Shown piece after piece: positions 5,213 to 50,584 of a DNA stretch of 54,852 nucleotides. Within the stretch, counting starts at the first letter, position 1. Each line of letters begins with the position of its first letter. Source of the DNA: Candidatus Binatia bacterium. GTDB taxonomy: Bacteria > Desulfobacterota > Binatia > UBA9968. A model generated the notes under the pieces. It worked only from the letters and a program-made list of their open reading frames with translations, was not told the DNA's origin and did not search any database. The stretch is from positions 1 through 54,852 of the forward strand of contig DASTOD010000567.1 of assembly GCA_035762645.1 (NCBI GenBank). Reading direction: 5' to 3'. A program made the translations under genes and the position numbers.

Positions 5213-5215
5213 ACT

Positions 5216-11832: not shown

Positions 11833-11833
11833 T

Positions 11834-12196: not shown

Positions 12197-12226
12197 CGGT
12201 GCCGGGCGTTGGCGTAGAGTCCGCCC

Positions 12227-12721
12227 ATGAAAATGAACCGAAGATTCGCCTTTGTCGCTCTCGCCTCCCTCCTGATCACGGCGGGATGTTCAACGATCAA
12301 CCCCGATACGGGCCAGAAGGTTTTCGATCCCATCAGGACCGCCCAGGTCAAGGCCGCCCTTCAGGCGCCGGTCCAGGAGACGATCACCCGGATCATTCGC
12401 AATTCCCCGGAGCACAGCGATCAGATCGCGAATTATTTCCGTTCCGCCGGCAATGTCTTCTGCAAGATGCGGGATACATCGCGCTTCGAGCCACAATTCC
12501 TCATTGCCGAACTTGAGAAGGCGACCGAAGGCCTCCAGCAAGGTTTGGATCCCCTTGCCATCACTGCGAAAAACACGATTATTGCCCTGTACGTCGTCTT
12601 CTATTCGCAGCGTCAAAGCGCAGATCTCTCACCGGAAAAGTTCCTCTGGAATACTTCGGACCTCTTCTGCAACGCCATCAATACCGGACTGAAGGACGCG
12701 GGAAAGCCTGGCACGTCCTGA
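12227..12721 (+). CDS. putative lipoprotein (164 aa)
   Basis: The N-terminus MKMNRRFAFVALASLLITAGC has a basic n-region, a hydrophobic core and a lipobox-like TAGC. Confidence 0.6.
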   Translation: MKMNRRFAFVALASLLITAGCSTINPDTGQKVFDPIRTAQVKAALQAPVQETITRIIRNSPEHSDQIANYFRSAGNVFCKMRDTSRFEPQFLIAELEKATEGLQQGLDPLAITAKNTIIALYVVFYSQRQSADLSPEKFLWNTSDLFCNAINTGLKDAGKPGTS

Positions 12722-12732
12722 ATATCAATGAA

Positions 12733-13077
12733 ATGGTCAAGCGTCCCGGGGAACCTTCGGTTGTCGTCCATGTCACCATCATCAACCCTCTGCGGAAGGT
12801 TAAGAAAACGGTGACCGGCAGCGCCTTTGCACGCACGCCGTCTCCGGCGAGCGTCATGGAAGCGGCCCGCGAGGCCCTGAAAGAAGCGTCGGAATGTTAC
12901 GCGATTGAACGCTGCAACTATTGTGTTCCGGATCATCCGCTCCCCAATGGTTCTTTGCCTGGCGGGAGTTCTGTTTTGGACGGGTTGTCAGTCGCCCCCT
13001 TCTCCGGGCCTGGACTCCGGAACGATGGGCAACCCGCCCATGCCCCCACTGCCCCCAAACCGCCTGAGAATCAGTGA
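12733..13077 (+). CDS. hypothetical protein; the 3' part overlaps the next gene
   Basis: 114-aa ORF with an ATG start. It overlaps 12947..13345 by about 130 nt in another frame. Third-position G+C does not discriminate the two frames. Confidence 0.35.
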   Translation: MVKRPGEPSVVVHVTIINPLRKVKKTVTGSAFARTPSPASVMEAAREALKEASECYAIERCNYCVPDHPLPNGSLPGGSSVLDGLSVAPFSGPGLRNDGQPAHAPTAPKPPENQ

Positions 13078-13345
13078 ATCGAGCCGGAACGAAACGATAG
13101 AGCCGGTGGGGACATGGACACTGGCCGACACGGTAAGGACGAACGGACTCGGGCACGCCGAATTCATATTTCATACCCAAACCGTCTGGCAGGGGTGGGA
13201 ATTCGAACAGTCCGACGATGGATACCAATGGCAGTCCTTCGCCCGGTCAGTTCACACAAACAACACACGAACCGCTTTCGTGGTTGTGAACACCGCCGCG
13301 GCAATACGGACAAACAGGGTGTACCGGATCAGGCGGATTTATTAG
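12947..13345 (+). CDS. putative secreted protein or lipoprotein (132 aa)
   Basis: ATG 12947 gives MVLCLAGVLFWTGCQSPP, a signal-like segment ending in Cys. The track start at 12905 is a TTG. Confidence 0.5.
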   Translation: MVLCLAGVLFWTGCQSPPSPGLDSGTMGNPPMPPLPPNRLRISESSRNETIEPVGTWTLADTVRTNGLGHAEFIFHTQTVWQGWEFEQSDDGYQWQSFARSVHTNNTRTAFVVVNTAAAIRTNRVYRIRRIY

Positions 13346-15764: not shown

Positions 15765-16619
15765 TCAAGCGTTCGGAATCAGGGCGCCGGACGCAAGTTC
15801 TTTTTCCGCTTTGGTTGGACGTCCAACCGGCTTGCCTTCCATCGCCTTCCTGAGATCCGGCGAGAGATCCTTCGGGATGATCAACTGCGGCCTGAGCACG
15901 TCGATGAGCGTTCCATCCTTGCTCTGATGAAACAGGACCGTCTCAGGGAACAGACTCTTGGGTGTTCGTACGTTCACCGGATCCTCATCAACCCGTTCCG
16001 CCTTGAAGGTGATCATCTGGTCGCGCGGCGGGAAGAATTGCTGAATCAACTTCGTATCCGTGGCGCGCGGCACAAGGAATTCATGCGCGGCGAGATCAAA
16101 GGCACGCTGCCCTTCCAAGTACGGTTTCAAATCGGAAAACGCGTCCTGCGGATAAACGGCCACCATTGCCATGTGCTTCTTGATGTCCGCCGGCGCAACC
16201 TTCGCGTCCTGACTGTCGATGATTCTGCCCAGATAACGCTTCGGCTGTTCGTGGTACCCGTCGCTGAGTTGATCCAGCCAGTCCTTCTTCACCGGGACGC
16301 AATCAGGCTCCAGCCAGAGAAACGGATGGCGACAGGTCTGCTGAATCTGATTGGCCATGCGCGAGAACATCCGGTTGCAGGCAATCTGGTAGGCCGACAC
16401 TTCACCGATGTTGCAGCGGATCGTCCAGGCATACCCGAAAGCCTCCGCGGCGATCTTCTTCAGTTCGGCACTCTGTTCCTCGGGCACGGCCGAGTCGGCG
16501 CCCAGAAGGCAAAAGTGCTTTTCCACGCCGCCCAGTTCGGCGATCCACAGGAGGAGCTTGCGCGCAAGATCAACGTCCTTGGTGCAATAGGGGATAGCTA
16601 CGATCAAACTTTGGTTCAT
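15765..16619 (-). CDS. possible nucleotide-sugar (GT-A-like) transferase
   Basis: ATG 16619 overlaps the upstream stop (ATGA). LIVAIPYCTKD... and FLWLEPDCVPVKKDWLDQL resemble glycosyltransferase-like motifs. This is a weak call. Confidence 0.4.
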   Translation of the reverse strand: MNQSLIVAIPYCTKDVDLARKLLLWIAELGGVEKHFCLLGADSAVPEEQSAELKKIAAEAFGYAWTIRCNIGEVSAYQIACNRMFSRMANQIQQTCRHPFLWLEPDCVPVKKDWLDQLSDGYHEQPKRYLGRIIDSQDAKVAPADIKKHMAMVAVYPQDAFSDLKPYLEGQRAFDLAAHEFLVPRATDTKLIQQFFPPRDQMITFKAERVDEDPVNVRTPKSLFPETVLFHQSKDGTLIDVLRPQLIIPKDLSPDLRKAMEGKPVGRPTKAEKELASGALIPNA

Positions 16620-16807
16620 GTGAGTCCTAATTGTCTGGCCTTCCATTCAGGCAGTTCGATTTGGTGAAGATTGCTGTCAGGAAATTTGACCGTGCGTTTG
16701 ATGATGCTGCGCGGCAACCAGACTTCGGTTCCGTCCTTGAACCGGTAGCAGCGCGCCAGATCCGTCTCGGCGCGGAATTCAAGAGTGACGGTGATCGGTT
16801 CGCTCAT
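16616..16807 (-). CDS. hypothetical protein (63 aa)
   Basis: ATGA overlaps at both ends. Confidence 0.6.
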   Translation of the reverse strand: MSEPITVTLEFRAETDLARCYRFKDGTEVWLPRSIIKRTVKFPDSNLHQIELPEWKARQLGLT

Positions 16808-17121: not shown

Positions 17122-17994
17122 TCACACGGTTCTAGGTTCGATGGCCGGAACGGGTTGGGTTTTGGTTTCATCGGTAACGTCTACTTGGTCTTCACGAATT
17201 GTCCCACTTTCCGTTTGTGGGGACGGATCAGCCGAGGGAATATCACGCATTTCGGTGGGTATCCCTCCTCCCGAATGATGTGCCGGATCTCGTGTTGGGT
17301 CACTTGTCTCTCGTGGTGTTTCATTGCTTCTTCCTCCTTCTTTGAGCACCCAGCAAAAGTCTGGGAACTCCTTCCATTCGGATTCGAGTGTGCGTGCGGC
17401 AATCACGTCGTACGGAACAAACAATTTCAAAGGTAGATGGCAACTGCACACGCTGCACGTGTGAATCCTATCCTCGCCGTTCACGCGCAGTCCCATCCTC
17501 AGTTTCTCGCGACGTTGGTCGTGGATTGCCTTCGCAACGAAAGCTGTAAGTTTCGCCACGAAATGCCCCTCCTGGTTCTTCGGGCATTGAAGACAGACAT
17601 CCGCACGTGCCTGGGCCAGTTCCTGAGCTACGGGCTGGCCGCCTGATCCCAGCCAATCAATGATGATCTTACTTCCGACCGCCGCATGTCTTGCACTTCG
17701 GACGATGTGACTCGCGCTCTGTTTGAGCGTTTGCCACCCCGACGTGTTTTTTTTTGACTCACACCAGCGAGGGTCAAAGCCCAGCCGTTCGCAGGTGAAA
17801 GCGTCCAGTTCTTCGCCGATGGCATACAGATCCGTCGGCATGAGGTTGTTTCCAATGCGATAATCGCGAATGCGCTTGCACTGGTCGTTGAAGCCGTACG
17901 TCAGGCCGTCAAACTTGTGAACGGCGCCATCGGCCTTCTTCTGTTCGAAAGGAAAGCCGCCCGGGGGCATCGTGTTTCGAGTGATGAGGGACAT
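17122..17994 (-). CDS. Cys-rich hypothetical protein (290 aa)
   Basis: ATG start. CLQCP and CSVCSCH clusters suggest metal binding. Confidence 0.6.
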   Translation of the reverse strand: MSLITRNTMPPGGFPFEQKKADGAVHKFDGLTYGFNDQCKRIRDYRIGNNLMPTDLYAIGEELDAFTCERLGFDPRWCESKKNTSGWQTLKQSASHIVRSARHAAVGSKIIIDWLGSGGQPVAQELAQARADVCLQCPKNQEGHFVAKLTAFVAKAIHDQRREKLRMGLRVNGEDRIHTCSVCSCHLPLKLFVPYDVIAARTLESEWKEFPDFCWVLKEGGRSNETPRETSDPTRDPAHHSGGGIPTEMRDIPSADPSPQTESGTIREDQVDVTDETKTQPVPAIEPRTV

Positions 17995-19037: not shown

Positions 19038-20831
19038 TTATGAAAAGGTTAATTGTTGATTTGCGATTAAATTTTGAGTTTTTTCCTCCTCTTTGGCAAG
19101 AAAATTGTCCGGGTCAGATTCGAAGACACCGATCATCCTCGAAATCTGGAAGCCCAGCCGGCGTGCTCCCTCAATCGCCGTGGCCAGCCAATCGAACAGG
19201 TCCGGCGAACGGCCGACACGCTCTTTCATGTCCTTTTTGGGTTCAACCTGGATTTTGTTGCCACGGCATTCCACCCATTCGCGCAGGCAGCCTTCCTCCA
19301 TCACATCAGGAGGGAGTCCACGCATCTGGCCGGCCTCGATGGTGTAGCGGACTGAGTACCAGAGTTCGGTGACAAAATTGGCATACTTTTCGTGACACAG
19401 AACGAGCCTCTTTTCTCCGGTTCTAGGGTCGATCATGAATGTGTCATTGGTGACCGGACGCGCGCTGGCGGATCCACCGAACTCCACCGGGTTGACCTTG
19501 GGGCTCCAGAGCCGTCCGAACGATGTTCCGAGCGAACCACGACCGGTCGCGTCGTGGAACACGTTCTCGGGCGGGATGTCCAGGGAGATACAATCGTCGC
19601 GGACCCAGGTCGCGATCTGGTCCTCTGGGGTGACTCCGTTGCCAATCTCAATCGGGATGATCTTTTGACGCGGAACGTAAAGAATCAGGTTGCCCTCGGG
19701 GTCCGGTCCAAATTCGATGTGGCCGGCGACGCAACGGTCCCCTCCGACGTTCCCGTAAGCGGCGTCAATCGCGTAGACCTTCGTGCGCATCGTTCCCAGC
19801 CATTCGGGCTCGCGTTCGGCGCCGTGTTGCTTGCACAGGTCGGCCGTGATGACCTTCCGGGCAATCAGACCCGTGATTCGGGCACCCTTGCACTGCGACC
19901 AGAACTCAGCGGAGTTTGGACCGTAATCCCGCAAGGTGGCTTCGATCGTGTCCGGCCTCGTGAGGTAGGGGAAACGGATCTCTCCCGGATGATCGAAGTT
20001 GGGACTGTCCGTGCCAATGAGATTGACACACGCCCCGCGGAACTTTCGGGTTTTCCAGACGCTTGTTTTTTCAGGAATCGGGTGTTTGTGCCAGCCGCAT
20101 TCCGGCTCCGCGACGATGTCCAGGGGATCACCCAGGCCGAGAGGGTTGCCGAGGAACACTGCCTTGAAATCGGGATTGTTTCGAAGGTTGGCAATGGCTC
20201 CCAGGAAGCTCGAAGACATGAACTGGCACTCATCCGCGAACAGACGCACGCGATTGTTCTTGGCGCCGGCGTATCTTCCGAGTCCCTTGAACTGGCCACG
20301 GTCGGAAAGACAGGGAATGCAGATCATTCCCTGCCGAAGATCCCTGACTTGACCTGAACCGGCTTGCTGAGTGGAAACAGCGTGCAAATAGTCGATGACC
20401 GTCCCCGGGAAGTGTTCATCATGTTCGAAGGCGCGTTCCCAAAGCGATTTGAGCGCACCCCAGACCCGCAACTCCAGACCTCGAACGTCCGTGCTACTGA
20501 TGAGTGTCAGCGTTTCGTCGGGGAAACAGGCGTAATCGGTGAGCCCGATCTTCGCGACCGTGTAGGTCTTGCTCGAACTGGCGGCACCCATCACCGTCAG
20601 GTACTGGTTTTCGAGGTAGTTTTTGAGGATGAGATCCGCCCAGCGATGTTCGTCGTCCTCGGGCCACCAGATTTTCCACAGCTCCTTGTAATGGTGGAAT
20701 AGACCTTTGCCGCACAGCGTGCCGTTACCGTCGCGCCAGTAGCCTCCTTTGGCGATGCAGGATTTCTCAATCTCGATGGTATCGTCGTCCGCCCAGAGCG
20801 CGCCGTATCGGATGAACTTACCAGTTTTCAC
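19038..20831 (-). CDS. terL: terminase large subunit
   Basis: 597 aa. Walker A is GAASSSKT and Walker B is RLFADECQF, followed by a nuclease-sized C-terminal half. GTG start. Confidence 0.85.
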   Translation of the reverse strand: MKTGKFIRYGALWADDDTIEIEKSCIAKGGYWRDGNGTLCGKGLFHHYKELWKIWWPEDDEHRWADLILKNYLENQYLTVMGAASSSKTYTVAKIGLTDYACFPDETLTLISSTDVRGLELRVWGALKSLWERAFEHDEHFPGTVIDYLHAVSTQQAGSGQVRDLRQGMICIPCLSDRGQFKGLGRYAGAKNNRVRLFADECQFMSSSFLGAIANLRNNPDFKAVFLGNPLGLGDPLDIVAEPECGWHKHPIPEKTSVWKTRKFRGACVNLIGTDSPNFDHPGEIRFPYLTRPDTIEATLRDYGPNSAEFWSQCKGARITGLIARKVITADLCKQHGAEREPEWLGTMRTKVYAIDAAYGNVGGDRCVAGHIEFGPDPEGNLILYVPRQKIIPIEIGNGVTPEDQIATWVRDDCISLDIPPENVFHDATGRGSLGTSFGRLWSPKVNPVEFGGSASARPVTNDTFMIDPRTGEKRLVLCHEKYANFVTELWYSVRYTIEAGQMRGLPPDVMEEGCLREWVECRGNKIQVEPKKDMKERVGRSPDLFDWLATAIEGARRLGFQISRMIGVFESDPDNFLAKEEEKTQNLIANQQLTFS

Positions 20832-24011: not shown

Positions 24012-24572
24012 ATGGCACTCCAAGGAAAAAGAATCAATCAACTGGCGGTCGCCGCAACGTCGATCGAGGACGACGATCTGTTCGGCATAGACCAGGACAT
24101 CGGCGGCGGAGTCTTTCAGACTAAAAAAGCCAAAAGGAAATTGCTGCCCAACATTTCGATGGTCAGTCGGACCAGCGATTTGCTCCGCACCCCTGCGGCG
24201 GGGATAATTGATGATCCTGAACTCATCTTCCCGGTGATTGCGGGAGCCACCTATCTGATTCAGGGACGACTGATTTTCGTGGCTGGAGGGGGTTCCGCGG
24301 CTTACACGCGCCAGTGGATCACGCCGGCGCTCACCAGCGGCATTCTGGACTGGATTCAATTTGAGTCGGTCGCCGGGGTGGCCCATTCCTACTCGGTGGC
24401 TCCTTTCTTTCTTGCCTTCGGAAACACTGCCGGGAATGACGCCGTGCTCGAGGACCGGTTGATTATTATTCCTTCAGCCGCCGGCAATGTCGCCGTGCGG
24501 TGGGGATCCACAGTTACGGGAGTGACGATCAAAGCAGGCAGTTTCCTGCAAATTCAGAAATTCGTGCCCTGA
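24012..24572 (+). CDS. hypothetical structural protein (186 aa)
   Basis: AAAAGGAA RBS. Tail block. Confidence 0.6.
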   Translation: MALQGKRINQLAVAATSIEDDDLFGIDQDIGGGVFQTKKAKRKLLPNISMVSRTSDLLRTPAAGIIDDPELIFPVIAGATYLIQGRLIFVAGGGSAAYTRQWITPALTSGILDWIQFESVAGVAHSYSVAPFFLAFGNTAGNDAVLEDRLIIIPSAAGNVAVRWGSTVTGVTIKAGSFLQIQKFVP

Positions 24573-26467
24573 TGCCCGAACCAGGAACAATGTGTCCGGA
24601 ATGCGTCGTCCTCGACTGTTGTCCGCCGAGCGGTCTGGACGATTATCTCCTCGTTGGAGGCATCGTCCTGAACAACGAAGTGTCGGTCGTTTTCCAATGC
24701 CCTGAAGGTTACAGTTGCGCCCCGGGAACCTACCCAAAAACCATCGTAATCGAAGAAGGACGACTTCGCTGGCATCCGCCTCCGACTCCGCGTCCTCAAC
24801 CAGAATCCTACCCGATTCGGCTCCAGTGCTGCGATGGCGTGATCATTCGACAGGTGTCGGCCGGTATTACTCAAACCGCCTACGACGCTCTATTGCAGGA
24901 GATGGCCGACGAATGGGCTCGGCGGCAGGCCGGGTGTGAGGAAAAAGGTTTCCGCTCACGCCGCAAACGGCAGACCAACGACGCGCAAACGATCAACTGC
25001 CCCAATGGCGACGACTTGTTCAATGTGTCCGGCCTTCCGTTGAGCGCCTTCCTGCCAACTGCCTTCCGGATCTCCGTCGATGGCAAAGGGCTTACGGTCC
25101 TGGCGGGTGTTGTTGCGGTCGATAACACCGGAGCCAACGCCTTCCTTACGGACGCGGAGTTGAAGGCACAGGCGAATGAACAGGCATTGGCCCTAGTGAC
25201 CGCCCGGTTCAATTCCGCCATCTCGGCCGGACAACTGCAGTGCGGCGTTGTACCGGCGCCGTGCGATCTTGGGGTATCGGACAACACGATCATCGCCGCA
25301 GCCTCGGCACCAAACCCTCAACCGTTGAATGACCAACTCAGCTACAACGTTGGCATTGGGAATTACGAGTGGTTCTACCTCAACGGATTTTACAAGTCTG
25401 ACGACAATCCTTGTCCCGGCGAATTCAAAGTCACTCAGGAAACGGCGATTGTGAACGACGGAGCGAGCGTGAACAATCTGCTCCAGGGACAGCCGTATTG
25501 TGATCCCGCCGATCCAGGAGTCGTCGAGGCGGCGGCATCGAACGATCTCACACGCAGCCTGACGCTCTACCATCACCTGACTCAAATCCGGCATAGGTTT
25601 GTCGGTCAAAATCCGACTAACTTCGTCGCAGGCAGTCCAAATCCCACCTGGAGAATTCGCCGGACAAAGAAGCCGAAGATCCAACCGCCGGCGAGATTGA
25701 GAGTACGGGATTTTGCCACAGTTTTTGCACCTACTTTGGTGGGTTGCGATGGCGCGGCGAATCCAGCAGCCGAACCGGTCTGGGATGGAACCTTTCCGAA
25801 CGACGATTTTTCAGGAGTGTTCGTGAACTGGGCGTGGCGTCCGGACTTCTCCCTTGGACTGCAATTGAACGGGAAGGTCCTGAGCACTGCGACTCGGCTC
25901 TATCACAGCACGGCGGCCGAGCCGACCGCGACAGGATGTGCCTGGGTGTTGGGTGTGGATTTCGACACCGGTTTCGGTTCCTGGGTGGGATTGGGCGGAA
26001 ACGGTTACCAGCCGGCCGGCGAGTATGTCTTCAATCCCGCGGCGTCAGGCTGGAGCCTTTGCAGCCAGAAGGCCGATGCGCGCGTCGCGACCGTGGCGGC
26101 GTTGCCGGCGAACACGCGCCTTGCGAACGTGATCACGGCGAACTCGAACGGGGCTTTGCCGGCGATTGATGGGGTGAGTCTGGCGGTCAGTGACCGGATC
26201 CTATTGAAGAACGAGGCGGCCTTCGCGAATAACGGGATCTACACGGTGACCGATCTCGGAAGCGCCGGAACACCCTGGGTACTTACGCGTTCAACGGACG
26301 CCGATACATCTCCAGAGGTCACTCAGGGGATCTTCCTGCAGGTCACCCAGGGAGTTGTCAATGCGCTCGGATACTTCCGACTCGTGACGACTGGCGCCAT
26401 CACCCTGAACACGACCGGCCTGACGTTCCTGAGAATGCCTTCCTCGGTCATCGTCGAAACGTATTGA
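24572..26467 (+). CDS. hypothetical structural protein (631 aa)
   Basis: ATG 24572 overlaps the upstream TGA (TGATG). The track start at 24500 would overlap the upstream gene. Confidence 0.6.
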   Translation: MPEPGTMCPECVVLDCCPPSGLDDYLLVGGIVLNNEVSVVFQCPEGYSCAPGTYPKTIVIEEGRLRWHPPPTPRPQPESYPIRLQCCDGVIIRQVSAGITQTAYDALLQEMADEWARRQAGCEEKGFRSRRKRQTNDAQTINCPNGDDLFNVSGLPLSAFLPTAFRISVDGKGLTVLAGVVAVDNTGANAFLTDAELKAQANEQALALVTARFNSAISAGQLQCGVVPAPCDLGVSDNTIIAAASAPNPQPLNDQLSYNVGIGNYEWFYLNGFYKSDDNPCPGEFKVTQETAIVNDGASVNNLLQGQPYCDPADPGVVEAAASNDLTRSLTLYHHLTQIRHRFVGQNPTNFVAGSPNPTWRIRRTKKPKIQPPARLRVRDFATVFAPTLVGCDGAANPAAEPVWDGTFPNDDFSGVFVNWAWRPDFSLGLQLNGKVLSTATRLYHSTAAEPTATGCAWVLGVDFDTGFGSWVGLGGNGYQPAGEYVFNPAASGWSLCSQKADARVATVAALPANTRLANVITANSNGALPAIDGVSLAVSDRILLKNEAAFANNGIYTVTDLGSAGTPWVLTRSTDADTSPEVTQGIFLQVTQGVVNALGYFRLVTTGAITLNTTGLTFLRMPSSVIVETY

Positions 26468-36189: not shown

Positions 36190-36891
36190 TCATGGTCCGA
36201 TGAATTGAGTCTCTGGATACAATACTCTGCCCAGGGAAAGACACCTTGCGATTCCCCAACCAAATCGCTCGGGACCTTGCTCGATAATTTCCCATCCTGA
36301 ACTATGTTGGATTTGCTTCCAGGTGCGATGGTGCTTCACGTGCATCCGGTCATCAACGATGAGAACGAACGTTCCTTTGACCAGCGACATCAGGTATTCG
36401 AATTCGATGAACCCCAAGTGCCCGGCGCTGTCGAGGAGAACCAGGTCCGGTTTGCACTCGAACGCGGCACAGGCGACACGAAGCAATGCGTCTGGTCCCT
36501 CTGACGCCTGTTCGCTGAGGTACATGTCCACGCGGACGTTCGGGTCGTGATCGTAGTAGATGCCTGGAATCTGTTCGTCGATCACCAGAGCTTTGACCTG
36601 CTCCCGTGTGGGCAGCAGTTCTTCGGGAATGCTCAGGCCGTGCAGACAGACGACCTCGGGAGTGCGTTCGTAACGAGCCGCTGCCTTCATGAACAATTTG
36701 CGCGCGACTTCGATAGTTACCAATGTCCAGTCGTGAGCCTCACCCAGACTGTAGAGACTTTCGAAGAGGATTCGCGTGGTCCCCTCGCCGGTGCAAGTAC
36801 CGGTTTCGATGACGTACTTCGGCTTGCATCGTTCGACCGTGCGACGAATCGCCGCAGCGAACTCCCCGTCCTGGGTGGGGCTGATGTTCAT
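36190..36891 (-). CDS. class I SAM-dependent methyltransferase-fold protein (paralog-like of 1412..2077)
   Basis: ATG 36891 overlaps the upstream stop (ATGA). VIETGTCTGEGTT (motif I), PDLVLLDSAGH and FVLIVDDRMH occur in the same order as in the 1412 gene product. Confidence 0.6.
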   Translation of the reverse strand: MNISPTQDGEFAAAIRRTVERCKPKYVIETGTCTGEGTTRILFESLYSLGEAHDWTLVTIEVARKLFMKAAARYERTPEVVCLHGLSIPEELLPTREQVKALVIDEQIPGIYYDHDPNVRVDMYLSEQASEGPDALLRVACAAFECKPDLVLLDSAGHLGFIEFEYLMSLVKGTFVLIVDDRMHVKHHRTWKQIQHSSGWEIIEQGPERFGWGIARCLSLGRVLYPETQFIGP

Positions 36892-37112
36892 AGACTTCCC
36901 GAAACCATCGGCGGTGGCTCCCAATCCCATGGGACAAAAATTTGTTTGAAATAACCGGATCGAGTATTCGACAACCACGCCCATCCCTCACGGCCATCTT
37001 CAAGGGTTACCACGACTGTACGGAAGATTTCACCATCATTCGGACCGCCAATGGCGCTCACGCTCATTTGATATTCGTCCGGGGACGCATCACGATGGCT
37101 GACAATCTTCAC
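36888..37112 (-). CDS. hypothetical protein (74 aa)
   Basis: GTG 37112 overlaps the upstream stop (GTGA), with AAGGAG 8 nt upstream. The track start at 37121 sits directly on the RBS. Confidence 0.5.
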   Translation of the reverse strand: MKIVSHRDASPDEYQMSVSAIGGPNDGEIFRTVVVTLEDGREGWAWLSNTRSGYFKQIFVPWDWEPPPMVSGSL

Positions 37113-39919: not shown

Positions 39920-41200
39920 ATGCCAGCCGCAACTGAAGCCCCTCCAGCCCCGTCCACCACGACTCCAGCGCCATCCCCTGATGCTGGCGCCGGCGCTCAA
40001 CCTGTTCAGATGCCAGCGGCAGCCGGCGCACCGGATACGCCGGATCCAGATTCATTTTTCAATACGCTTGACGGAGGGGAGACATCACCCGAAGCGGGCG
40101 CCGGCGCTCCCGATGGTGGCGAGAAGCCGCCCGGCGAAAAGCCCGCTGCCAGGACTCCTCCTGCACCGGCAAAGCCAGCCCCAAAGTCGGGGGAGAAGCC
40201 TGCGCCGGCCGCTGGTGAAAAGCCGAAGCCGGCCGCGGCTGCTCCTGTTCCGGGGAGTCCAAAGGAACTGCGCGTCGCGTATGAGCGAAGCCAAAACGAG
40301 TTGAAGGCCGCCAATGCGGAGAAAGTCCGTCTGCTGCAACAGGTCGAAACGCTCAGGAAAACTCCTCAATCCAACCCGGCCGAATTGCAGGCCGTGACTC
40401 AGCAGTTGGCTCAGGAACAGAAAGCGCGCCAAGATCTCGAAACGGAATTGAAGTATTTGCGCTATGAGCATTCGGAGGAGTACAAGCAGAAGTACGAGCA
40501 GCCGTGGAACGCCGCCCAAAAGCGCGCCTTTGATACGGTCAAAGACCTCATGGTCAAAGTCCAGGGCGCGGATGGGACCGTGAGCGAACGGAACGCGACC
40601 GCGGCAGATTTTCACACGGTGTTCAATCTCCCCGAAGGGGCGGCGTGGCGCAAGGCCCGGGAATTGTTTGGAGAGGACGCTCCCGTCGTGATGACTCACT
40701 ACACGAAGCTGAATGAAATCCTCACGGCCTCTCGCGAAGACATCAATAAATATCGAACCGAGGGGGCTGAGCGCGACAAACAGGAAGCCGCTCGCAAGGC
40801 ACAGGAAAAGCAAGCCGATGCGGCCATGGGGCGAAAGGCCGATGAGGCGTACCTGAATCATGCGAAGTGGGGACCGCACTTCAAGCCGGTCGAAGGCGAT
40901 GAAGCCGGCAACAAGGATCTGGAGATGGGATTCAGGCGGGCGAATGTTGACCTGGACACGTTGAGCCCGGGTAATCGCGCGCTGGCAAAGTCGTGGCTGA
41001 AACACGCCGCGGCAGCTTTCCCGCGGCTGGTGTCGAAGGTGACCGCTTACGAGGCGCGCATCGCCGATCTGGAAGCCAAACTCAAGGAGTTCGAAGATTC
41101 CGGACCTGGACCCGGCGAGGAAGCCGGCGGCGGCCGACCGCCCCAGGCCAATGATCGCGAAACGGATCCTCTCAAGGCGCTGGATCGAGCCCTCGGATAG
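39920..41200 (+). CDS. Pro/Ala/Lys-rich low-complexity plus coiled-coil protein
   Basis: AGGAA RBS. The N-terminal ~110 aa contain GEKP repeats. The rest is charged and helical. Confidence 0.6.
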   Translation: MPAATEAPPAPSTTTPAPSPDAGAGAQPVQMPAAAGAPDTPDPDSFFNTLDGGETSPEAGAGAPDGGEKPPGEKPAARTPPAPAKPAPKSGEKPAPAAGEKPKPAAAAPVPGSPKELRVAYERSQNELKAANAEKVRLLQQVETLRKTPQSNPAELQAVTQQLAQEQKARQDLETELKYLRYEHSEEYKQKYEQPWNAAQKRAFDTVKDLMVKVQGADGTVSERNATAADFHTVFNLPEGAAWRKARELFGEDAPVVMTHYTKLNEILTASREDINKYRTEGAERDKQEAARKAQEKQADAAMGRKADEAYLNHAKWGPHFKPVEGDEAGNKDLEMGFRRANVDLDTLSPGNRALAKSWLKHAAAAFPRLVSKVTAYEARIADLEAKLKEFEDSGPGPGEEAGGGRPPQANDRETDPLKALDRALG

Positions 41201-41252
41201 AACATAATAATTTGTTTGACACATTGGAGCGCCTGGCCGATTCTCTCCGCTC

Positions 41253-41546
41253 GTGAACGCGCGTGCTCGCAAGACCTATCTCAAACGGCTGAACGCCCTG
41301 CGCGAACGCGGTCACCGCAATTCTCAGTCGGTCGACGTGGTGTTGCGTCCATCGGATCGTCTGCTCAAGCTGATTGCCCAGTTCGACACGTTGAATGCTG
41401 CGGCCTGCGAATGGGGTCTGGCGTCTCCGACCCTAGAACGTTTCGTCAACGGACGTCATGGCATCAGCGGCAACACCGTGGCGAAGATCCTCGTGAAGAC
41501 GGGACTCAGGTACGACGAGGCGTTCGTGCATGTGAAGGGAGTCTGA
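41253..41546 (+). CDS. small HTH-type DNA-binding protein
   Basis: GTG start. ACEWGLASPTLERFVNGRHGISGNTVAKIL resembles a Cro/C1-type HTH. Confidence 0.45.
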   Translation: MNARARKTYLKRLNALRERGHRNSQSVDVVLRPSDRLLKLIAQFDTLNAAACEWGLASPTLERFVNGRHGISGNTVAKILVKTGLRYDEAFVHVKGV

Positions 41547-42661
41547 TGGGCGAAGGAACTAGCATTCAGTGGGCGGATGACACGCACAACTTCTGGCGGA
41601 TCTGCACCAAGGTCAGTCCGGGTTGCAAAAATTGCTATGCCGAAACCCTGCTCAAGAATCGTCGCGGTGAGAAATGGGGCAAAGGCGCACCGCGCATCCG
41701 ACTCAAGGCTTTCGACGCACCGATCCGATGGAATAAGAAGCCCTGGGTGTGCGACCTATGCGGCTCGCGAAGTGCCGCCAATCGCCGCGACAATGGGAGT
41801 TGTCTGAACCCCTTGTGTCCTTACCGGGATGGATCAGCGGGCAGCTTTCATCGCCGCCGCGTTTTCTCGCTGTCGCTCGGCGACTGGCTCGATGAGGAGG
41901 TTCCGATTGAGTGGCTGGCGGACATGCTCAACGTGATTCACCAATGCCCGAACTTGGATTTTCTGCTGCTGACGAAGCGCCCTGAGAATTGGTCGCCACG
42001 AATGGAGTCTATTCGCCTTCATGGGCTTGATCAGAAATGGGTCAGCACGAAATGGGACATGGAGAATCAGCCTCCGCACAACGTTTGGATCGGCGTCTCG
42101 GTCGAGGATCAGCAACGTGCGGACGAACGGATTCCGCAACTGCTGAAGATTCCGGCGCGCATTCGGTTCCTGAGTGTCGAGCCGCTGCTGGGGCCAGTGC
42201 GGTTGGATTTCGAGTGGCGTAACGATTTGCAGCGATGGGATTCAGCCGGGCGCGAACTCGAACCGCGTAGGATCGACTGGGTGATCGTCGGGGGCGAGAG
42301 TGGTCCCGGCGCGCGCCCATGCAAAGTTGATTGGATCAGAAGCGTCCGCGACCAATGCAAAGCAGCCGGTGTTCCAATGTTCGTGAAACAGTTGGGATCC
42401 AATCCTCACCGCAATGGCGAAGACGAATCGGAAACTACTATCCTACTTGATCACAAAAAGGGTGGTGACATCTCCGAGTGGGCCGAGGATTTACGCATTC
42501 GAGAATTTCCATACCAACCAATGAGAGACGCGAATCCTAGGCATCTTCGCGTCACGTCCGGCGAGGCTATGGTCCGTGGTCGTTCGGCCTGCGCTGGGAA
42601 CTTGATAGACGGGGACTCGCTCGATCACGGCGGGCGAGCCCCGAAGGCGGAAAACTTATGA
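41546..42661 (+). CDS. phage Gp37/Gp68 family (DUF5131) protein
   Basis: ATG 41546 overlaps the upstream TGA. The N-terminus (TSIQWADDTHNFWRICTKVSPGCKNCYAE) and later GGESGPGARP...WIRSVRDQC...GVPMFVKQLG are the family signature. Confidence 0.8.
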   Translation: MGEGTSIQWADDTHNFWRICTKVSPGCKNCYAETLLKNRRGEKWGKGAPRIRLKAFDAPIRWNKKPWVCDLCGSRSAANRRDNGSCLNPLCPYRDGSAGSFHRRRVFSLSLGDWLDEEVPIEWLADMLNVIHQCPNLDFLLLTKRPENWSPRMESIRLHGLDQKWVSTKWDMENQPPHNVWIGVSVEDQQRADERIPQLLKIPARIRFLSVEPLLGPVRLDFEWRNDLQRWDSAGRELEPRRIDWVIVGGESGPGARPCKVDWIRSVRDQCKAAGVPMFVKQLGSNPHRNGEDESETTILLDHKKGGDISEWAEDLRIREFPYQPMRDANPRHLRVTSGEAMVRGRSACAGNLIDGDSLDHGGRAPKAENL

Positions 42662-43683: not shown

Positions 43684-44817
43684 ATGAGGCATCTGGATCT
43701 GTTCACTGGGATTGGCGGCTTCACGATCGCGGCCGAGTCCGTCGGATTTGAAACCGTTGCGTTCAGCGAGATCCACAAGGACAAGTGCATCGTTTTGAAA
43801 CATTACTGGCCGCACGTGCCGAATCTCGGAGACATCTGTGATGAGCACTTCCTTGAGCGAGCCAGAGCGATTGAACCGTTTGATCTCGTTACGGGCGGCG
43901 TTCCTTGCCAGCCTGCGAGCGCGCTCGGACAAATGCGCGGTGCTTCTGACGAACGCTGGCTCTGGCCCGAATTTGTCAGAGTGGTACGCACGTTTCGACC
44001 CAGAGTGGCGGTCGCTGAAAACCCGCCAAGTGTCCTTGTTCTGCCGGAATTCCACGGAGTCCTTGGAGAGATTGCCGCGCTCGGGTATGATCTGTTGTGG
44101 GATGTTATTCCCGCTGCCGCGTTTGGTGCAGGGCATCTCCGAGAACGCGTGTTCATTGTCGCTGCCGACGCCCGTCGCTGCCGACGGCAAACGCGGACCG
44201 GATTATGCACGGTCGAACCGACCGGAGAAAAGCGGCGACGATCTGGTGACCCGGATGGCGAAACTTCTGCCAACTCCAACGGCCAACGACGGAGTGAAGA
44301 GGGGCGACGCCTATCTATTCGAGAAACGGACAGAAAAGGGCAAATGGAATCCCTGCGACAATCTTCCGAGATCAATCGCGAAGCAGTTGCTTCCAACACC
44401 GACCACCCGCGATTACAAGGACACGCCGGGGATGCTGTTCGAGACGAAGGACAGAAGCAGGAACGATCAGTTGCCGAGACGGGTATTCAAGACGCTGTTG
44501 CCGACGCCGAATACTTGGGATCACAAAATAGGATACAGCGACGCGATAAACAGGCGGGAGCCGAAACTCAAGATGCGTGGCTACACGGCAACGAGACCGT
44601 TGGCGAATCGCATCATCGAGAAGCAACACTCCCAGACCTGCGGGGCCGTGTCACCGGCCCGGACTGGTGGCATGAAGCTCACACCGGAATTCCTGTGCTG
44701 GCTCCAGGGATTCCCGGTCGATTGGCTGAAGCCGTTAGTCTCTGCGTTGGCGACTCGGTCGTCCCGCAAGTCGCCGCGGCGGTCCTCCAGCCCATCTACG
44801 AAATGCTGAAGCGATGA
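43684..44817 (+). CDS. DNA (cytosine-5) methyltransferase; 'frame A', the full-length ORF
   Basis: Motif I is DLFTGIGGF, IV is GGVPCQ, VI is AENP and VIII is GAGHLRERVFIV. The C-terminus is WW.E...GIPVLAPGIPGRL....VGDSVVPQVAAAV (motif X-like). The central ~190 codons are an R/E/Q/G-rich stretch with low third-position G+C. Confidence 0.75.
   Translation: MRHLDLFTGIGGFTIAAESVGFETVAFSEIHKDKCIVLKHYWPHVPNLGDICDEHFLERARAIEPFDLVTGGVPCQPASALGQMRGASDERWLWPEFVRVVRTFRPRVAVAENPPSVLVLPEFHGVLGEIAALGYDLLWDVIPAAAFGAGHLRERVFIVAADARRCRRQTRTGLCTVEPTGEKRRRSGDPDGETSANSNGQRRSEEGRRLSIRETDRKGQMESLRQSSEINREAVASNTDHPRLQGHAGDAVRDEGQKQERSVAETGIQDAVADAEYLGSQNRIQRRDKQAGAETQDAWLHGNETVGESHHREATLPDLRGRVTGPDWWHEAHTGIPVLAPGIPGRLAEAVSLCVGDSVVPQVAAAVLQPIYEMLKR
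43838..44809 (+). CDS. nested +1-frame ORF ('frame B', 323 codons) carrying LPTP repeats and a motif IX-like segment
   Basis: Open from 43799 (first start GTG 43838, ATG 43841) to 44809. Contains LPTPVAADGKRG, LLPTPTANDGVKRG, LLPTPTTRDYKD, LLPTPNTWDHK and LTPEFLCWLQGFPVDW. Third-position G+C is about 72-76% by hand count. It is unresolved whether this is a separate product, a frameshifted part of the methyltransferase, or neither. Confidence 0.35.
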   Translation: MMSTSLSEPERLNRLISLRAAFLASLRARSDKCAVLLTNAGSGPNLSEWYARFDPEWRSLKTRQVSLFCRNSTESLERLPRSGMICCGMLFPLPRLVQGISENACSLSLPTPVAADGKRGPDYARSNRPEKSGDDLVTRMAKLLPTPTANDGVKRGDAYLFEKRTEKGKWNPCDNLPRSIAKQLLPTPTTRDYKDTPGMLFETKDRSRNDQLPRRVFKTLLPTPNTWDHKIGYSDAINRREPKLKMRGYTATRPLANRIIEKQHSQTCGAVSPARTGGMKLTPEFLCWLQGFPVDWLKPLVSALATRSSRKSPRRSSSPSTKC

Positions 44818-46825: not shown

Positions 46826-48268
46826 ATGAGCATCGCTTACTGTTGCCTCGGCAGACTCGGCGACATCATCAACGCGTTGCCACTCGCCTGGGAGGATTCG
46901 CGCGTTGCCGGGCCCGTGCCCTGGATCGTCTCGCGCGAGTTCGCTACCGTACTTGAGGGGGTCTCGTACTGCAGGCCAGTCATTTACGACGGCGAATACT
47001 GGGATCTCCAGGGGGCCGTCCGCAAGTTCAAGGACACGTTCAGCGAGTTGCGCATCGTCCAGGCGTGGTCCTCGAACTATCCTAGTTGCGTGCTGGGGGA
47101 TTCCTTCGCGCGCTCGGCCTGGGCGCAGGTGGGCCGCGGCGGGTGGCCCGGCCGGCTGGTGTTCGACCGGCGCGACATCGACCGCGAGTTGCGCCTATGG
47201 AATTTGTTCCACGCGGCACACCTGGGGAGCGCCGATCCGATCCTGGTCGCGCTGGACTCGACTTCGAGCCCCTTCCCTCACCGCCGGCACCTTCTGGATC
47301 TGCTCCGCGCCGCCTGTGGGACGCGTGTTTGGGAACTGGATCCAAAGGCGACGAGGGTTTACGACCTCCTAGGGCTCTTCGAGCGCGCCGCTGCCCTTGT
47401 GACGGTCGACACGATGCACCTGCACCTGTCCTGGGCCGTCCCGCGGCTACCGGTCATCGCCTTGATCGCCGACCATCCGAACCGTTGGCACGGCACGGCC
47501 TGCCGGCCGAATCAGGCCTTTCGGGCCCGCTACAAGGAATATCCGGCGAAAGCTCAGGAACTCATGGCAGCGGTCGCCGTCGCCATCGGTGGGAAAACCT
47601 GCCCACGACTCATTCATTGCTGGTCCGATTACGAGCGAAGCGCGGGTGCTAAATCGCGTCACGGTATGGCGTTGGGAAGCTGGACCGTCGAGAAGAATCG
47701 TCGACATGAAGTTTGGGATAGTGTGCCCACAAGCGGCAAAGGCAGTCTGTTCGAAGGGCGCCTGCTGCATTCCGTGAAGTCCATTCTGGACTCCGGCCTC
47801 GCCGCAGCACGCAGCGACGACGATCTACTGGTCCTGACCAACGATGACACGGGCTTTGTGCCCGGGATCACGGAAAGCCTCCTCGAGGTTGCCTCCTGGC
47901 CGTTGCCAGCGTGCTACGCGCACCGGATGGATGTCGACCGAAGCGACGGTGCACTGTCGAGCACGATCGACGGTGGCGCCTACCCTGGCGTTGATCTCTT
48001 TGCCATGGGTGTAAGACTTTGGAAAGAGTGGCGAAAGGAGTTCCCCGAGTGCGTTGTGGGCGCCGAACAATGGGATCTGGCGATGCTGGCCTTGATGCGG
48101 CGCGTCGGGGCCATCGAACTGCCCGGGATCATCTGGCATCAGGCGCATCATCCCGCATGGGTGGGTCCGAATGCGCACAAGGCCAACCAGTTCAACCGCC
48201 GGGCATGCGGGTTGTGGTTCGCGAAGCTGGGGGTGACGGCCGACCAGGTGATCGAAGGACTAGTATGA
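46826..48268 (+). CDS. two-domain glycosyltransferase (GT9/heptosyltransferase-like N-terminus, GT-A-like C-terminus)
   Basis: The N-terminus has LGRLGDIINALPLA and VTVDTMHLHLSWAVPRLPVIAL, typical of GT9. The C-terminal half has DDDLLVLTNDDTGF, which is DxD-like. Confidence 0.6.
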   Translation: MSIAYCCLGRLGDIINALPLAWEDSRVAGPVPWIVSREFATVLEGVSYCRPVIYDGEYWDLQGAVRKFKDTFSELRIVQAWSSNYPSCVLGDSFARSAWAQVGRGGWPGRLVFDRRDIDRELRLWNLFHAAHLGSADPILVALDSTSSPFPHRRHLLDLLRAACGTRVWELDPKATRVYDLLGLFERAAALVTVDTMHLHLSWAVPRLPVIALIADHPNRWHGTACRPNQAFRARYKEYPAKAQELMAAVAVAIGGKTCPRLIHCWSDYERSAGAKSRHGMALGSWTVEKNRRHEVWDSVPTSGKGSLFEGRLLHSVKSILDSGLAAARSDDDLLVLTNDDTGFVPGITESLLEVASWPLPACYAHRMDVDRSDGALSSTIDGGAYPGVDLFAMGVRLWKEWRKEFPECVVGAEQWDLAMLALMRRVGAIELPGIIWHQAHHPAWVGPNAHKANQFNRRACGLWFAKLGVTADQVIEGLV

Positions 48269-48615
48269 TCCGAACCTTCAAATGCAATTTCGGGAAGGAC
48301 GTCGGATGCAGCGTCGAGATTGACGACACCCCGCCAGCGGTGACCAGCGAATATAGCCAGATGGCGGCGCGCAAGGTCGAGTGGACGGGAAAACCGACGG
48401 CGGCCGTCATGCGTCCGTACGTCGGGTGGATGAACTCGGTCAATCAACAGATGGCTAACGAATGGGGACGCAAACTCATGCACGTGTTCATGTTCGACAA
48501 GCTGGGCCAGTCATTCGAAATTTGGGCCTACGAACCTCACGTGCCGGCAATACTGGTGGCCCGTCACAATGTTCCTGGGCTTCCGGACAAGAAACCGACA
48601 AGGGAAAAACGATGA
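48265..48615 (+). CDS. hypothetical protein (116 aa)
   Basis: ATG 48265 overlaps the upstream TGA (ATGA). Confidence 0.6.
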   Translation: MIRTFKCNFGKDVGCSVEIDDTPPAVTSEYSQMAARKVEWTGKPTAAVMRPYVGWMNSVNQQMANEWGRKLMHVFMFDKLGQSFEIWAYEPHVPAILVARHNVPGLPDKKPTREKR

Positions 48616-48857
48616 ATCTTGCACTTTCCACGGTGCCAAAATTGATTCGCGAGCGGGATGTTAGAGAGCCTTCGTTCGTTGTTCGTAAGAGCGATGGCCA
48701 AATCGGTCAGGTATTGGACCAGGCTTTCGACGGCTGGCTGTATGTCATTTGGGATCATCCCGCTTGGGATCGCACTTGGCAAACGTCATTCATCAACCCA
48801 AATGCCGTCATCTGGATTCGGCCCGCGAGCCACCGGCGCAGAAAGGCAATCGGATGA
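48612..48857 (+). CDS. hypothetical protein (81 aa)
   Basis: ATGA overlap at 48612. Confidence 0.6.
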   Translation: MNLALSTVPKLIRERDVREPSFVVRKSDGQIGQVLDQAFDGWLYVIWDHPAWDRTWQTSFINPNAVIWIRPASHRRRKAIG

Positions 48858-49081
48858 TCAATCGAGACTGGAAGGAACCCTGGGTTGATCGGATGGGTCT
48901 GGTCGTTGCGCTGAGTGGCGAGGACCGATTCACGCATTTGCAGCGGCTCAAACGGGACATGGCGCCGCTCGCGCCGGAGCAACAAGCGGAGCTTCGCGAG
49001 TGCTTCCGGCAACGCTTCACACCCAGCAACGGAGTTGATGGCTGTCAAAGTGCAACTCAGGCAGTTAGGGAGGTTATGTGA
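48854..49081 (+). CDS. hypothetical protein (75 aa)
   Basis: ATGA overlap at 48854. Confidence 0.6.
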   Translation: MINRDWKEPWVDRMGLVVALSGEDRFTHLQRLKRDMAPLAPEQQAELRECFRQRFTPSNGVDGCQSATQAVREVM

Positions 49082-49668
49082 TCGAGAAGTGGGGCTGCTA
49101 TACGCAACCAGAACCGGTTTGGAAAGGCATACCTGGCTTCTTCGACTTCCAGGACGTTTATAACGAAATCGCCGACTGGGCTCAGGACGGCTTTACTCTG
49201 GTTGAAGTCGGTTCATTCCTCGGCCGCTCAGCCTGTTATCTGGGCGAGCAACTGCAGGCGCGGGGCAAGCGCGTCACTCTGATCTGTGTCGATACCTGGC
49301 CCGCGGCGTACAACTGGGGTCCGGAGCATTTTCCACAGCTCGTCATCGAGTCGCCTTTCGAGACGTTCTATGCAAACGTGCGGCAGTCCGGGTTGCTCGG
49401 TACGATCGTACCTATACGGGCTTCATCTGCACGGGCTTCAGACTTCATCAAAGATGGTCTGGACTTCGTTTACATCGACGCCGGCCACGATTATCCGAAC
49501 ATCGCGAATGACATTTCGGTTTGGCTTCCAAAGGTGCGCTCCGGCGGGATCCTGGCTGGCCACGACTACAACCTGGAGAGCTTCCCCGGGGTGGTGCAGG
49601 CGGTCAACGAGTCGTTCGGACCTGATCAACGTGAGATCCGCGGGGCTTCCTGGGTGGTGAAATTATGA
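49078..49668 (+). CDS. class I SAM-dependent methyltransferase (Methyltransf_24/CmcI-like)
   Basis: GTG 49078 with a GGGAGG RBS. LVEVGSFLGRSACYL (motif I), DFVYIDAGHDY and GGILAGHDY. Confidence 0.7.
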   Translation: MIEKWGCYTQPEPVWKGIPGFFDFQDVYNEIADWAQDGFTLVEVGSFLGRSACYLGEQLQARGKRVTLICVDTWPAAYNWGPEHFPQLVIESPFETFYANVRQSGLLGTIVPIRASSARASDFIKDGLDFVYIDAGHDYPNIANDISVWLPKVRSGGILAGHDYNLESFPGVVQAVNESFGPDQREIRGASWVVKL

Positions 49669-49801
49669 GAAACGCTCCAGAATCGCCCAGGACGCGCCGG
49701 GGGGCTATCATACCGCACCCCCCACCCTTCCGATTGCAGGGCGCCCATGCAGCGGAAGCGGGCTGCGGCAAATCCTGGAGCCACCCCCTTTTCCAAAACC
49801 T

Positions 49802-50584
49802 ATGAAATGGCAATCCCTGACCATCGTCTGCAACGAGGCGCCCTGGATCGAGGTTCAGGTCCGCTCACTCCTGGACCAGTTCGACCGGGTGGTCGTCGTC
49901 GATGGCGCCGCGGCCGGCGACACCGGGGGCGCCGGCGACGGGCACAACCTGACCGGAGGCCTCCATCATTCGACCGATGGCACGGTCGAGATCCTTCAAC
50001 GCCTCGAGCGCGAGGTCCCGAAGCTCAAGGTGGTTTACGCTCCGGCGGGCGGGTGGCTCAACAAAACTGCCATGTGCAACGCTGGCCTGTTCCACATGGA
50101 ACCGGGCTGGATCGTCCAGCGCGACGTCGACGAGTTCTTCGCTCCGACGGCTTTTCAGCTTCTGAAATGGCTGGTCGACGACTCGGATTACACCGACGTT
50201 GAGTTTTTCGCGTATCATTTCTGGGGCGATCGTCGGCATTACATGCGGCTCTCGCGCGAGATCTGGGGCAACGTGATTCCATGGCGCCGTGTGTTTCGCT
50301 GGCAGGGCGAGCCCTGGGCGTCTCACGAGCCGCCGCGGTTCAAACGCAAGACCGCCGAGAAGTTGCTGACGATGGAAGAGACGCGGGCCCTCGGAATCAT
50401 CCTCTGGCATTACAGCTATTGCGACCTGGGCCAGTTGCGAAAAAAGGAAATCTTCTACGGGATCCAGGGGCAGCTCGTCCCGACCGTCGAGCAGTGGCGC
50501 AAGGATCCGAAGTCAATCCCGAAGAATGCGGACCTCGAGGAGTTCAACGGACTCCATCCAGTCAAGCTGCCGGTGGTGGACTAG
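49802..50584 (+). CDS. family-2-like (GT-A) glycosyltransferase
   Basis: SLTIVCNEAPWIE...VVVVDGAA...STDGT...QRDVDEFF gives a GT2-like N-terminal signature with a DxD. Confidence 0.65.
   Translation: MKWQSLTIVCNEAPWIEVQVRSLLDQFDRVVVVDGAAAGDTGGAGDGHNLTGGLHHSTDGTVEILQRLEREVPKLKVVYAPAGGWLNKTAMCNAGLFHMEPGWIVQRDVDEFFAPTAFQLLKWLVDDSDYTDVEFFAYHFWGDRRHYMRLSREIWGNVIPWRRVFRWQGEPWASHEPPRFKRKTAEKLLTMEETRALGIILWHYSYCDLGQLRKKEIFYGIQGQLVPTVEQWRKDPKSIPKNADLEEFNGLHPVKLPVVD

Follow-up and report, generated by a model that had tools for sequence, protein, structure and literature searches.

A virus-restricted two-domain glycosyltransferase and its partner enzymes in a candidate glycan-assembly system of uncultivated phages

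To our knowledge, mycobacteriophages and giant algal viruses are the only viruses in which glycosylation of the virion has been proven. In PBCV-1, where A064R (two glycosyltransferase (GT) domains and a methyltransferase domain), A111/114R (three GT domains) and A061L are involved in capsid glycosylation, the major capsid protein receives a methylated oligosaccharide made by soluble multi-domain GTs and sugar O-methyltransferases (PMC9614988). In mycobacteriophages (Che8 and its relatives), phage-encoded soluble GTs, several to a cluster, are considered to modify capsid or tail proteins of the same phage (Freeman et al. 2023, Cell Host Microbe, as summarised in PMC11256854 and PMC12582341). 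Here we describe a gene cluster at positions 46826-50584 of contig DASTOD010000567.1 (C567), which was analysed whole (54,852 bp, referred to below as the window) and belongs to a 6.16-Mb metagenome-assembled genome (MAG) of 832 contigs. The cluster contains a fused two-domain GT, which we call FUS, a methyltransferase and a GT2 enzyme, and we read it as the central part of a soluble system, encoded by the virus, that would assemble a glycan in the cytoplasm.

Soluble virus-encoded GTs, with or without methyltransferases, are associated with structural genes in the FUS loci, as expected of virion glycosylation of the mycobacteriophage or chlorovirus type. Foldseek searches against viral models returned GTs of PBCV-1 and other giant viruses among the matches. 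PBCV-1 differs from the present phage in being a eukaryotic giant virus whose domains are not GT9-like and whose sequence similarity to the phage enzymes is negligible, and its methyltransferase is fused to GTs; the phage methyltransferase has a gene of its own. Mycobacteriophage clusters also include methyltransferases. In contrast to the mycobacteriophage systems, the enzyme families here are different, the hosts appear to be diderm environmental bacteria and not actinobacteria, the phage showed no acceptor tail, and the system is known from its genes alone. The GT9 heptosyltransferases (WaaC/WaaF, TibC/Aah) have the GT-B fold in common with the N-terminal half of FUS, and their N-terminal G-D and C-terminal D-x4-H motifs align with it. 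They are longer (~320-350 aa, compared with ~250 aa for the GT9-like domain of FUS); FUS, unlike them, carries a GT-A fusion, is virus-restricted and misses the Pfam and NCBIfam thresholds.

Glycosyltransferases and a methyltransferase of the phage

FUS (46826..48268, + strand, 480 aa) was modelled by AlphaFold2 from an alignment of 30 homologues, with a pLDDT (predicted local distance difference test) score of 91.5. In the model, residues ~1-255 form a compact GT9-like GT-B domain, and residues ~260-480 form a GT-A domain. A Foldseek search against the PDB matched the N-terminal half to the GT9 structure 3tov (E 1.8e-6), TibC (4rap, 1.9e-5), WaaF (1psw, 2.2e-5) and WaaC (2gt1, 2.7e-5), each with a probability of 1.00, while the C-terminal half matched LARGE1 (4.4e-6), K4CP (1.4e-5), WrtF (1.7e-4) and SpsA (1.5e-3), and also POMGNT2. 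Three residues of the GT9-like domain (D13, D195 and H200) are invariant across the 30 homologues, and the family profile, which aligns to WaaC with E 0.012, pairs them with WaaC D13, D261 and H266, which we take from the HepI literature to be the catalytic base and heptose-binding residues. In the GT-A half, D341 in a 'TNDD' motif is invariant and D390 nearly so among the same homologues.

The model and the Foldseek matches uphold the original prediction of a fused GT9-like and GT-A protein, although the GT9 sequence score is below threshold. PF01075 (GT9) gives 15.1 bits on FUS against a cut-off of 22, and TIGR02193 of NCBIfam is far below threshold (16.8 bits, cut-off 185); no Pfam family matches the C-terminal half, and a PDB sequence search with the single FUS protein returned no match. 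FUS is GT9-like as judged from its modelled fold and its active-site motifs, and fails the sequence thresholds of the GT9 family, so we regard it as a new relative that is restricted to viruses. Its GT9-like domain might possibly use ADP-heptose as donor. Some FUS relatives (P0025, P0029, P0030 and P0032) have the GT-A half swapped for a domain of ~300 aa, and one relative with a replaced GT-A half bears a precomputed GH130 (PF04041) match, a hint that mannosides may be involved and that the second domain is exchanged as a module.

The methyltransferase gene (49078..49668, + strand) encodes a 196-aa protein for which the earlier assignment to Methyltransf_24, a S-adenosylmethionine (SAM)-dependent family, was confirmed: PF13578 matches over profile positions 1-105 of 105 (E 4.4e-20) with 73 bits, well over the cut-off of 26.3. 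A glycine-rich SAM motif is present in the sequence as VEVGSFLGRS, and D134, H137, H162 and D163 are invariant in 7/7 phage homologues. The sole sequence relative in the PDB is 6g7d (E 5.9e-4), which is presumably MeT1 of M. hassiacum, the 1-O-methyltransferase of the mycobacterial methylmannose polysaccharide, a cytoplasmic product. Comparison with the NCBIfam model for rhamnosyl O-methyltransferase (NF045824) gave E 0.045, far under the cut-off. The protein is probably a sugar O-methyltransferase, as predicted from these relatives.

The last gene of the cluster (49802..50584, + strand) encodes a 260-aa GT2 enzyme of the GT-A type. PF00535 (Glycos_transf_2) matches it over the cut-off (E 1.6e-7, 31.8 bits vs. 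23.3), and the motif D108-V-D110-E111, with its conserved DxD, is kept in at least 13 of 14 homologues; both agree with the earlier GT2-like call. A PDB sequence search with this single protein gave no match. The enzyme assignments of the cluster are secure.

A further GT-like gene, expected from the outset elsewhere in the window, lies at 15765..16646 on the - strand (293 aa) and folds, in an AlphaFold2 model with a pLDDT of 85.4, as a GT-A enzyme of the GT8 type. Its Foldseek matches include AgtA (6mw5, 1.3e-6), glycogenin (~3e-6) and LgtC (8e-6), and also LH3, XylT1 and GlyE; E113-x-D115 and H240 are invariant in the family alignment. The protein has no Pfam or NCBIfam match, and its family profile found no solved relative by sequence. 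Its modelled GT-A fold is nearest to GT8-type enzymes, and it is termed GT8-like by fold and not by CAZy family profile. Four other phage loci (L004, L025, L060 and L064) encode FUS homologues that carry the GT8-like domain at their N-terminus, a Rosetta-stone link that ties 15765-16646 to the cluster. The gene is encoded in 13/30 FUS-bearing viral genomes, both closest relatives of the window among them.

At the level of fold and motif, the phage encodes four GT catalytic domains (GT9-like, fused GT-A, GT2 and GT8-like) plus one Methyltransf_24 enzyme. No transmembrane segment was found in any of the seven proteins of the system and its cluster (maximum 19-residue hydropathy < 1.5); having no hydrophobic segments, they are therefore expected to be soluble.

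Two more genes had been thought to have methyltransferase folds, 1406-2077 and 36190-36984; neither has a Pfam or NCBIfam match that would confirm this. A homologue of 36190-36984 (- strand) lies directly downstream of FUS in L019 (from 1330, + strand; E 2e-44); the window gene may therefore be part of the glycan system. L002 4710-5369 (- strand) is listed alongside 36190-36984 and its L019 homologue.

Distribution and neighbourhood of the FUS family

The phage origin of the contig is supported, in agreement with the original prediction, by genes for DnaB, RecT and a tail-fibre domain (the tail-fibre-like gene is at 24500-26467), by a large terminase family (19038-20831), which is the only structural or packaging family here confirmed by profile searches, and by the nearest relatives, IMG/VR genomes of 55.7-55.9 kb that are 99-100% complete, one of them with direct terminal repeats. 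C567 itself has no terminal repeat. Further genes encode a C5 methylase (43684-44817), a DUF2800 nuclease and an ASCH protein. In L033, a 948-aa terminase homologue (11678-14521, - strand) seemingly contains an intein; the scanned set held one Hom_end_hint and one Hom_end match, which we assigned to this terminase from its length.

The FUS family is almost confined to viral genomes. Thirty homologues, all metagenomic, were found in 5.8 billion clusters, and a pattern scan identified 62 IMG/VR loci with FUS. Among 185,579 species genomes, FUS was present in 6 loci, all of them on MAG contigs (five of 7-26 kb). The bins of these relatives (L076-L081) belong to Ignavibacteriaceae, Verrucomicrobiales, Hydrogenedentales, Rheinheimera, Pirellulales and Planctomycetaceae, and there are hints that the hosts of FUS-bearing phages are diderm environmental bacteria. 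The Planctomycetaceae chromosome record matches the N-terminal half of FUS only, at 26% identity. DNA and protein searches of GenBank phages gave no match to the cluster, to FUS, to the coat-like gene described below or to the three small open reading frames (ORFs) of the cluster, S1-S3. It had been considered that homologues might sit exclusively in lipopolysaccharide (LPS) loci, or that profile searches might not support the GT and methyltransferase folds; the FUS homologues are nearly all viral, and the profile and structure checks support the folds.

Neighbouring genes were counted by phmmer over 69 FUS loci with flanks of ±8 kb. GT2 homologues lie by FUS in 17 of these loci, a GT8-like domain is near or fused to FUS in 15, and a Methyltransf_24 relative is near FUS in 8. 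Further GT, methyltransferase or sugar-modifying genes are present in 38 of 57 non-redundant FUS loci, the variable partners being Methyltransf_11/23/24, Gly_transf_sug, DUF5672, a DegT aminotransferase, a PglD-type acetyltransferase and a weak GT11-like protein. The gene order differs from that of the window in L006, L015 and L058, yet the enzyme partnership is kept.

Head or packaging markers are found no more than 8 kb from FUS in 37/57 non-redundant loci; as markers we used homologues of the terminase (19038-20831), the 290-aa protein w17122 (17122-17994), a 756-aa portal-like protein (13329-15599), a scaffold-like protein and a 437-aa coat-like protein. Genes are repeatedly arranged as terminase - w17122 - GT8-like - portal-like and as scaffold-like - GT2/FUS/methyltransferases - coat-like, which mirrors the P22-type order of terminase, portal, scaffold and coat. 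Pfam confirms the two genes that flank FUS in the unrelated phage L003, a GpA terminase and a Phage_portal_2 portal. In the window, the GT8-like gene has the terminase block on one side and the portal-like gene on the other; it occupies the terminase/portal position and is the only enzyme of the system inside the packaging/head operon. The three-enzyme core (FUS, methyltransferase and GT2) lies within a long rightward operon that begins at the scaffold-like gene.

The scaffold-like gene (39920..41200, + strand) encodes a coiled-coil protein and is located 5.6 kb upstream of FUS in the same operon. Its homologues occur in 25 FUS loci, often immediately before GT2 or FUS (L015, L006 and L058), and all 25 have a Pro/Ala/Thr/Ser-rich low-complexity N-terminus of 60-120 residues. 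The scaffold role is suggested by the order of the genes, together with a single PHROG match to a scaffold protein among the scanned set. In the 437-aa coat-like family (6940-8253 in the window), C5, C80, C369 and C433, close to both termini, are invariant or nearly so. Such terminal cysteines are atypical for a major capsid protein, and the coat identity is putative.

The proposed acceptor of the glycan

In the mechanism that we propose, the GT domains would act in sequence on host nucleotide sugars, the GT9-like, GT-A, GT2 and GT8-like domains building an oligosaccharide of three to four residues that the methyltransferase would O-methylate. The acceptor would be a phage structural or assembly protein, and the progeny particle would carry a methylated glycan, much as capsids and tails do in mycobacteriophages and capsids do in chloroviruses. 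We give this reading, in which the target is predicted to be a virion or assembly protein, a probability of about 0.45, and favour it because the FUS neighbourhoods in relatives point to a head-assembly module. The original prediction had left the substrate open among a host glycan, virion protein and DNA; these candidates stand, and we now rank them, with protein before host glycan and host glycan before DNA.

A narrower form of the proposal, in which the GT9-like domain would start phage-protein O-glycosylation, the GT-A, GT2 and GT8-like domains would extend the chain and the Methyltransf_24 enzyme would cap it, is quite unlikely when taken in all its parts. It has a parallel in TibC and Aah, which start O-glycosylation on bacterial autotransporters, and TibC is a GT9-type fold able to glycosylate proteins. 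Under heptosylation, the acceptor could be the coat protein or the scaffold-like protein at its P/A/T-rich N-terminus. In the main proposal as well, this Pro/Ala/Thr/Ser-rich segment is a speculative O-glycosylation target, and the only candidate that emerged.

Several points weigh against a phage-protein acceptor. Characterised GT9 enzymes act mostly on the LPS core. No Ser/Thr tract that could be an acceptor tag is present in the real genes of C567. In C567, L002, L008 and the sister phage fragment L082, the core lies downstream of the RecT, C5-methylase and DUF2800 nuclease genes and outside the structural block; in this sub-lineage it has moved next to the RecT and nuclease genes. The portal-like, scaffold-like and coat-like families are left unnamed by Pfam, PHROG and PDB profile searches, and we infer their roles from size and gene order. 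The loci were chosen for FUS, so the neighbourhood counts lack a FUS-free control.

Alternatively, soluble enzymes at the cytoplasmic face could act, as heptosyltransferases do, on the host's LPS core or on a lipid-linked precursor of its O-antigen or capsule, altering the receptor during infection, with superinfection exclusion as the result or with progeny spared adsorption to debris. The WaaC-type active-site residues kept in the GT9-like domain are consistent with this, as are the LPS heptosyltransferases WaaC and WaaF among the best structural relatives of the N-terminal half of FUS, terminal O-methylation being a known chain-end mark in O-antigen synthesis, and the MAG bins with FUS relatives all belonging to diderm phyla; the early-looking operon in which the three-enzyme core lies on C567 also fits a host target. 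However, no membrane, flippase or undecaprenyl-phosphate (Und-P)-linked component and no transmembrane segment is present among the seven proteins, the FUS family hardly occurs in cellular genomes or LPS loci, the genes of most relatives are located within blocks for head assembly, and the GT9-like half is much shorter than the lipid-A-binding enzymes. The tyrosine integrase family PF00589 is over the cut-off in 3/30 relatives, and no PF00589 match is present on C567 (serine integrases were not searched in either case); with tyrosine integrases mostly lacking, stable lysogenic conversion is not the usual setting. Taken together, we consider remodelling of the host envelope unlikely, although the strongest of the alternatives. 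Gtr-type modules (GtrABC, Oac) likewise use a phage-borne GT2-family enzyme to alter a glycan, but they belong to temperate phages and require a membrane flippase and a polytopic GtrC, whereas all proteins here are soluble and the contig is without a tyrosine integrase; Gtr-type seroconversion was rejected on these two grounds. A free or non-protein product, such as a cytoplasmic methylated oligo- or polysaccharide or a glycosylated small molecule with which the phage would manipulate its host's physiology, is improbable, as is accessory 'moron' cargo without a role in the particle. The PDB relative 6g7d is presumably a methyltransferase of a cytoplasmic polysaccharide, the gene content of the island is highly variable, and the two-GT-domain architecture resembles the polymerases K4CP and LARGE1, all of which would suit such a product; yet no nucleotide-sugar synthesis or export genes are present in this window, and a metabolic accessory would not readily be expected to lie so consistently between head genes in lineages that have diverged.

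Sugar hypermodification of DNA, in which the GTs would add to, and the methyltransferase would trim, a glycan on a modified phage base, after the manner of T-even phages or of clusters of C5 methyltransferase, 5mYOX and GT genes, is highly improbable. The preprint by Pyle et al. (bioRxiv 10.1101/2023.12.21.572611) describes phage GT-A and GT-B enzymes derived from or related to LPS and teichoic-acid enzymes, present as tandem GTs with a C5 methylase nearby as in our phage, and shows that such enzymes glycosylate 5-hydroxymethylcytosine, heptose transfer included. In the window, the C5 cytosine methylase gene (43684-44817) lies 2 kb upstream of the cluster in the same operon, recombination genes are neighbours, and the best PHROG match of the methyltransferase is labelled 'DNA methyltransferase'. 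According to the same preprint, however, such clusters need a 5mYOX/TET or a thymidylate-synthase-like (ThyS-like) hydroxymethylase (bioRxiv 10.1101/2023.12.21.572611), and no match to PF12851 (Tet_JBP) or PF00303 (thymidylate-synthase-like) is present on C567 or over the cut-off in 30 FUS-bearing viral genomes, 22 of which are at least 90% complete. Unlike in the preprint's clusters, the methylase is not conserved with the cluster: a C5 methylase (Dcm-like) lies by FUS in 1/69 loci, L002 has none, and L008 has MT-A70 instead. The best Foldseek matches of FUS include no enzyme of the T4 beta-GT, JGT or TarP type, and the methyltransferase resembles a sugar O-methyltransferase structure. DNA hypermodification was rejected as the leading explanation on the absence of TET and ThyS-like genes from the contig and the 30 relatives.

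The GT9-like/GT-A fusion recurs in at least 62 uncultivated phage genomes, usually among head-assembly genes. If particles are decorated by the system, as glycosylation of a phage protein would have it, virions coated with sugar would be common among environmental phages, with a bearing on host recognition, particle stability, grazing, and antibody or lectin recognition. The FUS family would then supply new soluble GT and O-methyltransferase activities, possibly including a protein heptosyltransferase. The heptosylation form of the proposal, if true, would be the first phage protein heptosylation system and also the first case of virion glycosylation described from phages that infect diderm environmental bacteria (Planctomycetota/Verrucomicrobiota-type hosts). 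Should host LPS be the target, the cluster would represent a membrane-independent route by which mostly non-temperate phages remodel receptors. In both cases the family is un-annotated, with no Pfam model over threshold and no homologue among GenBank phages.

Gene layout and the small ORFs

The cluster comprises six + strand ORFs (46826-48268, 48265-48615, 48612-48857, 48854-49081, 49078-49668 and 49802-50584), as first described, with four start/stop overlaps of 4 nt (ATGA at 48265, 48612 and 48854, and GTGA at 49078); the last gene is preceded by a 133-nt gap. GC content by codon position is coding-like in the three enzymes, S1 and S3 and weaker in S2, where the value at third positions (GC3) is 0.57, of a weak coding type. 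A scan for promoters and terminators gave a result no better than shuffles. A strong AGGGAGG ribosome-binding site lies ahead of the GTG start of the methyltransferase.

S1-S3, which lie between FUS and the methyltransferase, had been counted as cluster members, and this part of the original prediction did not hold: phmmer found no relative of S1, S2 or S3 in any of the 69 FUS loci. In L002, the slot between FUS and the methyltransferase holds a 39-aa ORF, and in L008 an unrelated 111-aa ORF. S2 (48612..48857, + strand, 81 aa) is fast-evolving and has a single homologue, at the same position in L082 (59% identity by BLASTP, 52% by global alignment), through which this sister phage fragment was located. 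The enzymes of L082 are close to those of the window (FUS 89%, methyltransferase 90% and GT2 93% identity), as is S1 (90%), compared with 52% for S2 and 17% for the S3 slot, which in L082 holds an unrelated 70-aa ORF; two extra small ORFs replace the 133-nt spacer of the window (49669-49801). S3 (48854..49081, + strand, 75 aa) is a variable slot, with no match in the 69 FUS loci or in GenBank phages.

Absence from the 69 loci together with variability in L082 makes the small ORFs turnover cargo in the slots between the enzymes, and by these comparisons they are not members of the glycan module. The candidate role of the small ORFs as GT partners was rejected on their absence from the 69 related loci. 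Hot spots of small-gene turnover are 48612-49081 and 49669-49801 in the window, corresponding to 5177-5653 and 6249-6851 in L082.

S1 (48265..48615, + strand, 116 aa) belongs to a conserved small family of 93 representative clusters at E<=1e-3, with members of ~95-120 aa that share the motifs FxCxFGxG...WMNSVN...EWG...YEPGKPPK; S1 has no Pfam or PDB match. Its homologues adjoin C5 DNA methylase genes in L071 (4001-4285), L072 (~3956-4285) and L075, and in L071 the ATG of the S1 homologue overlaps the methylase stop codon. From this gene context, S1 may be a methylase-associated factor and not a glycan gene.

Further upstream in the window, between the scaffold-like gene and RecT, lies a gene for a 481-aa protein (41216-42661) with a DUF5131 (phage Gp37/Gp68) match (E 4e-69) and ~110 extra N-terminal residues.

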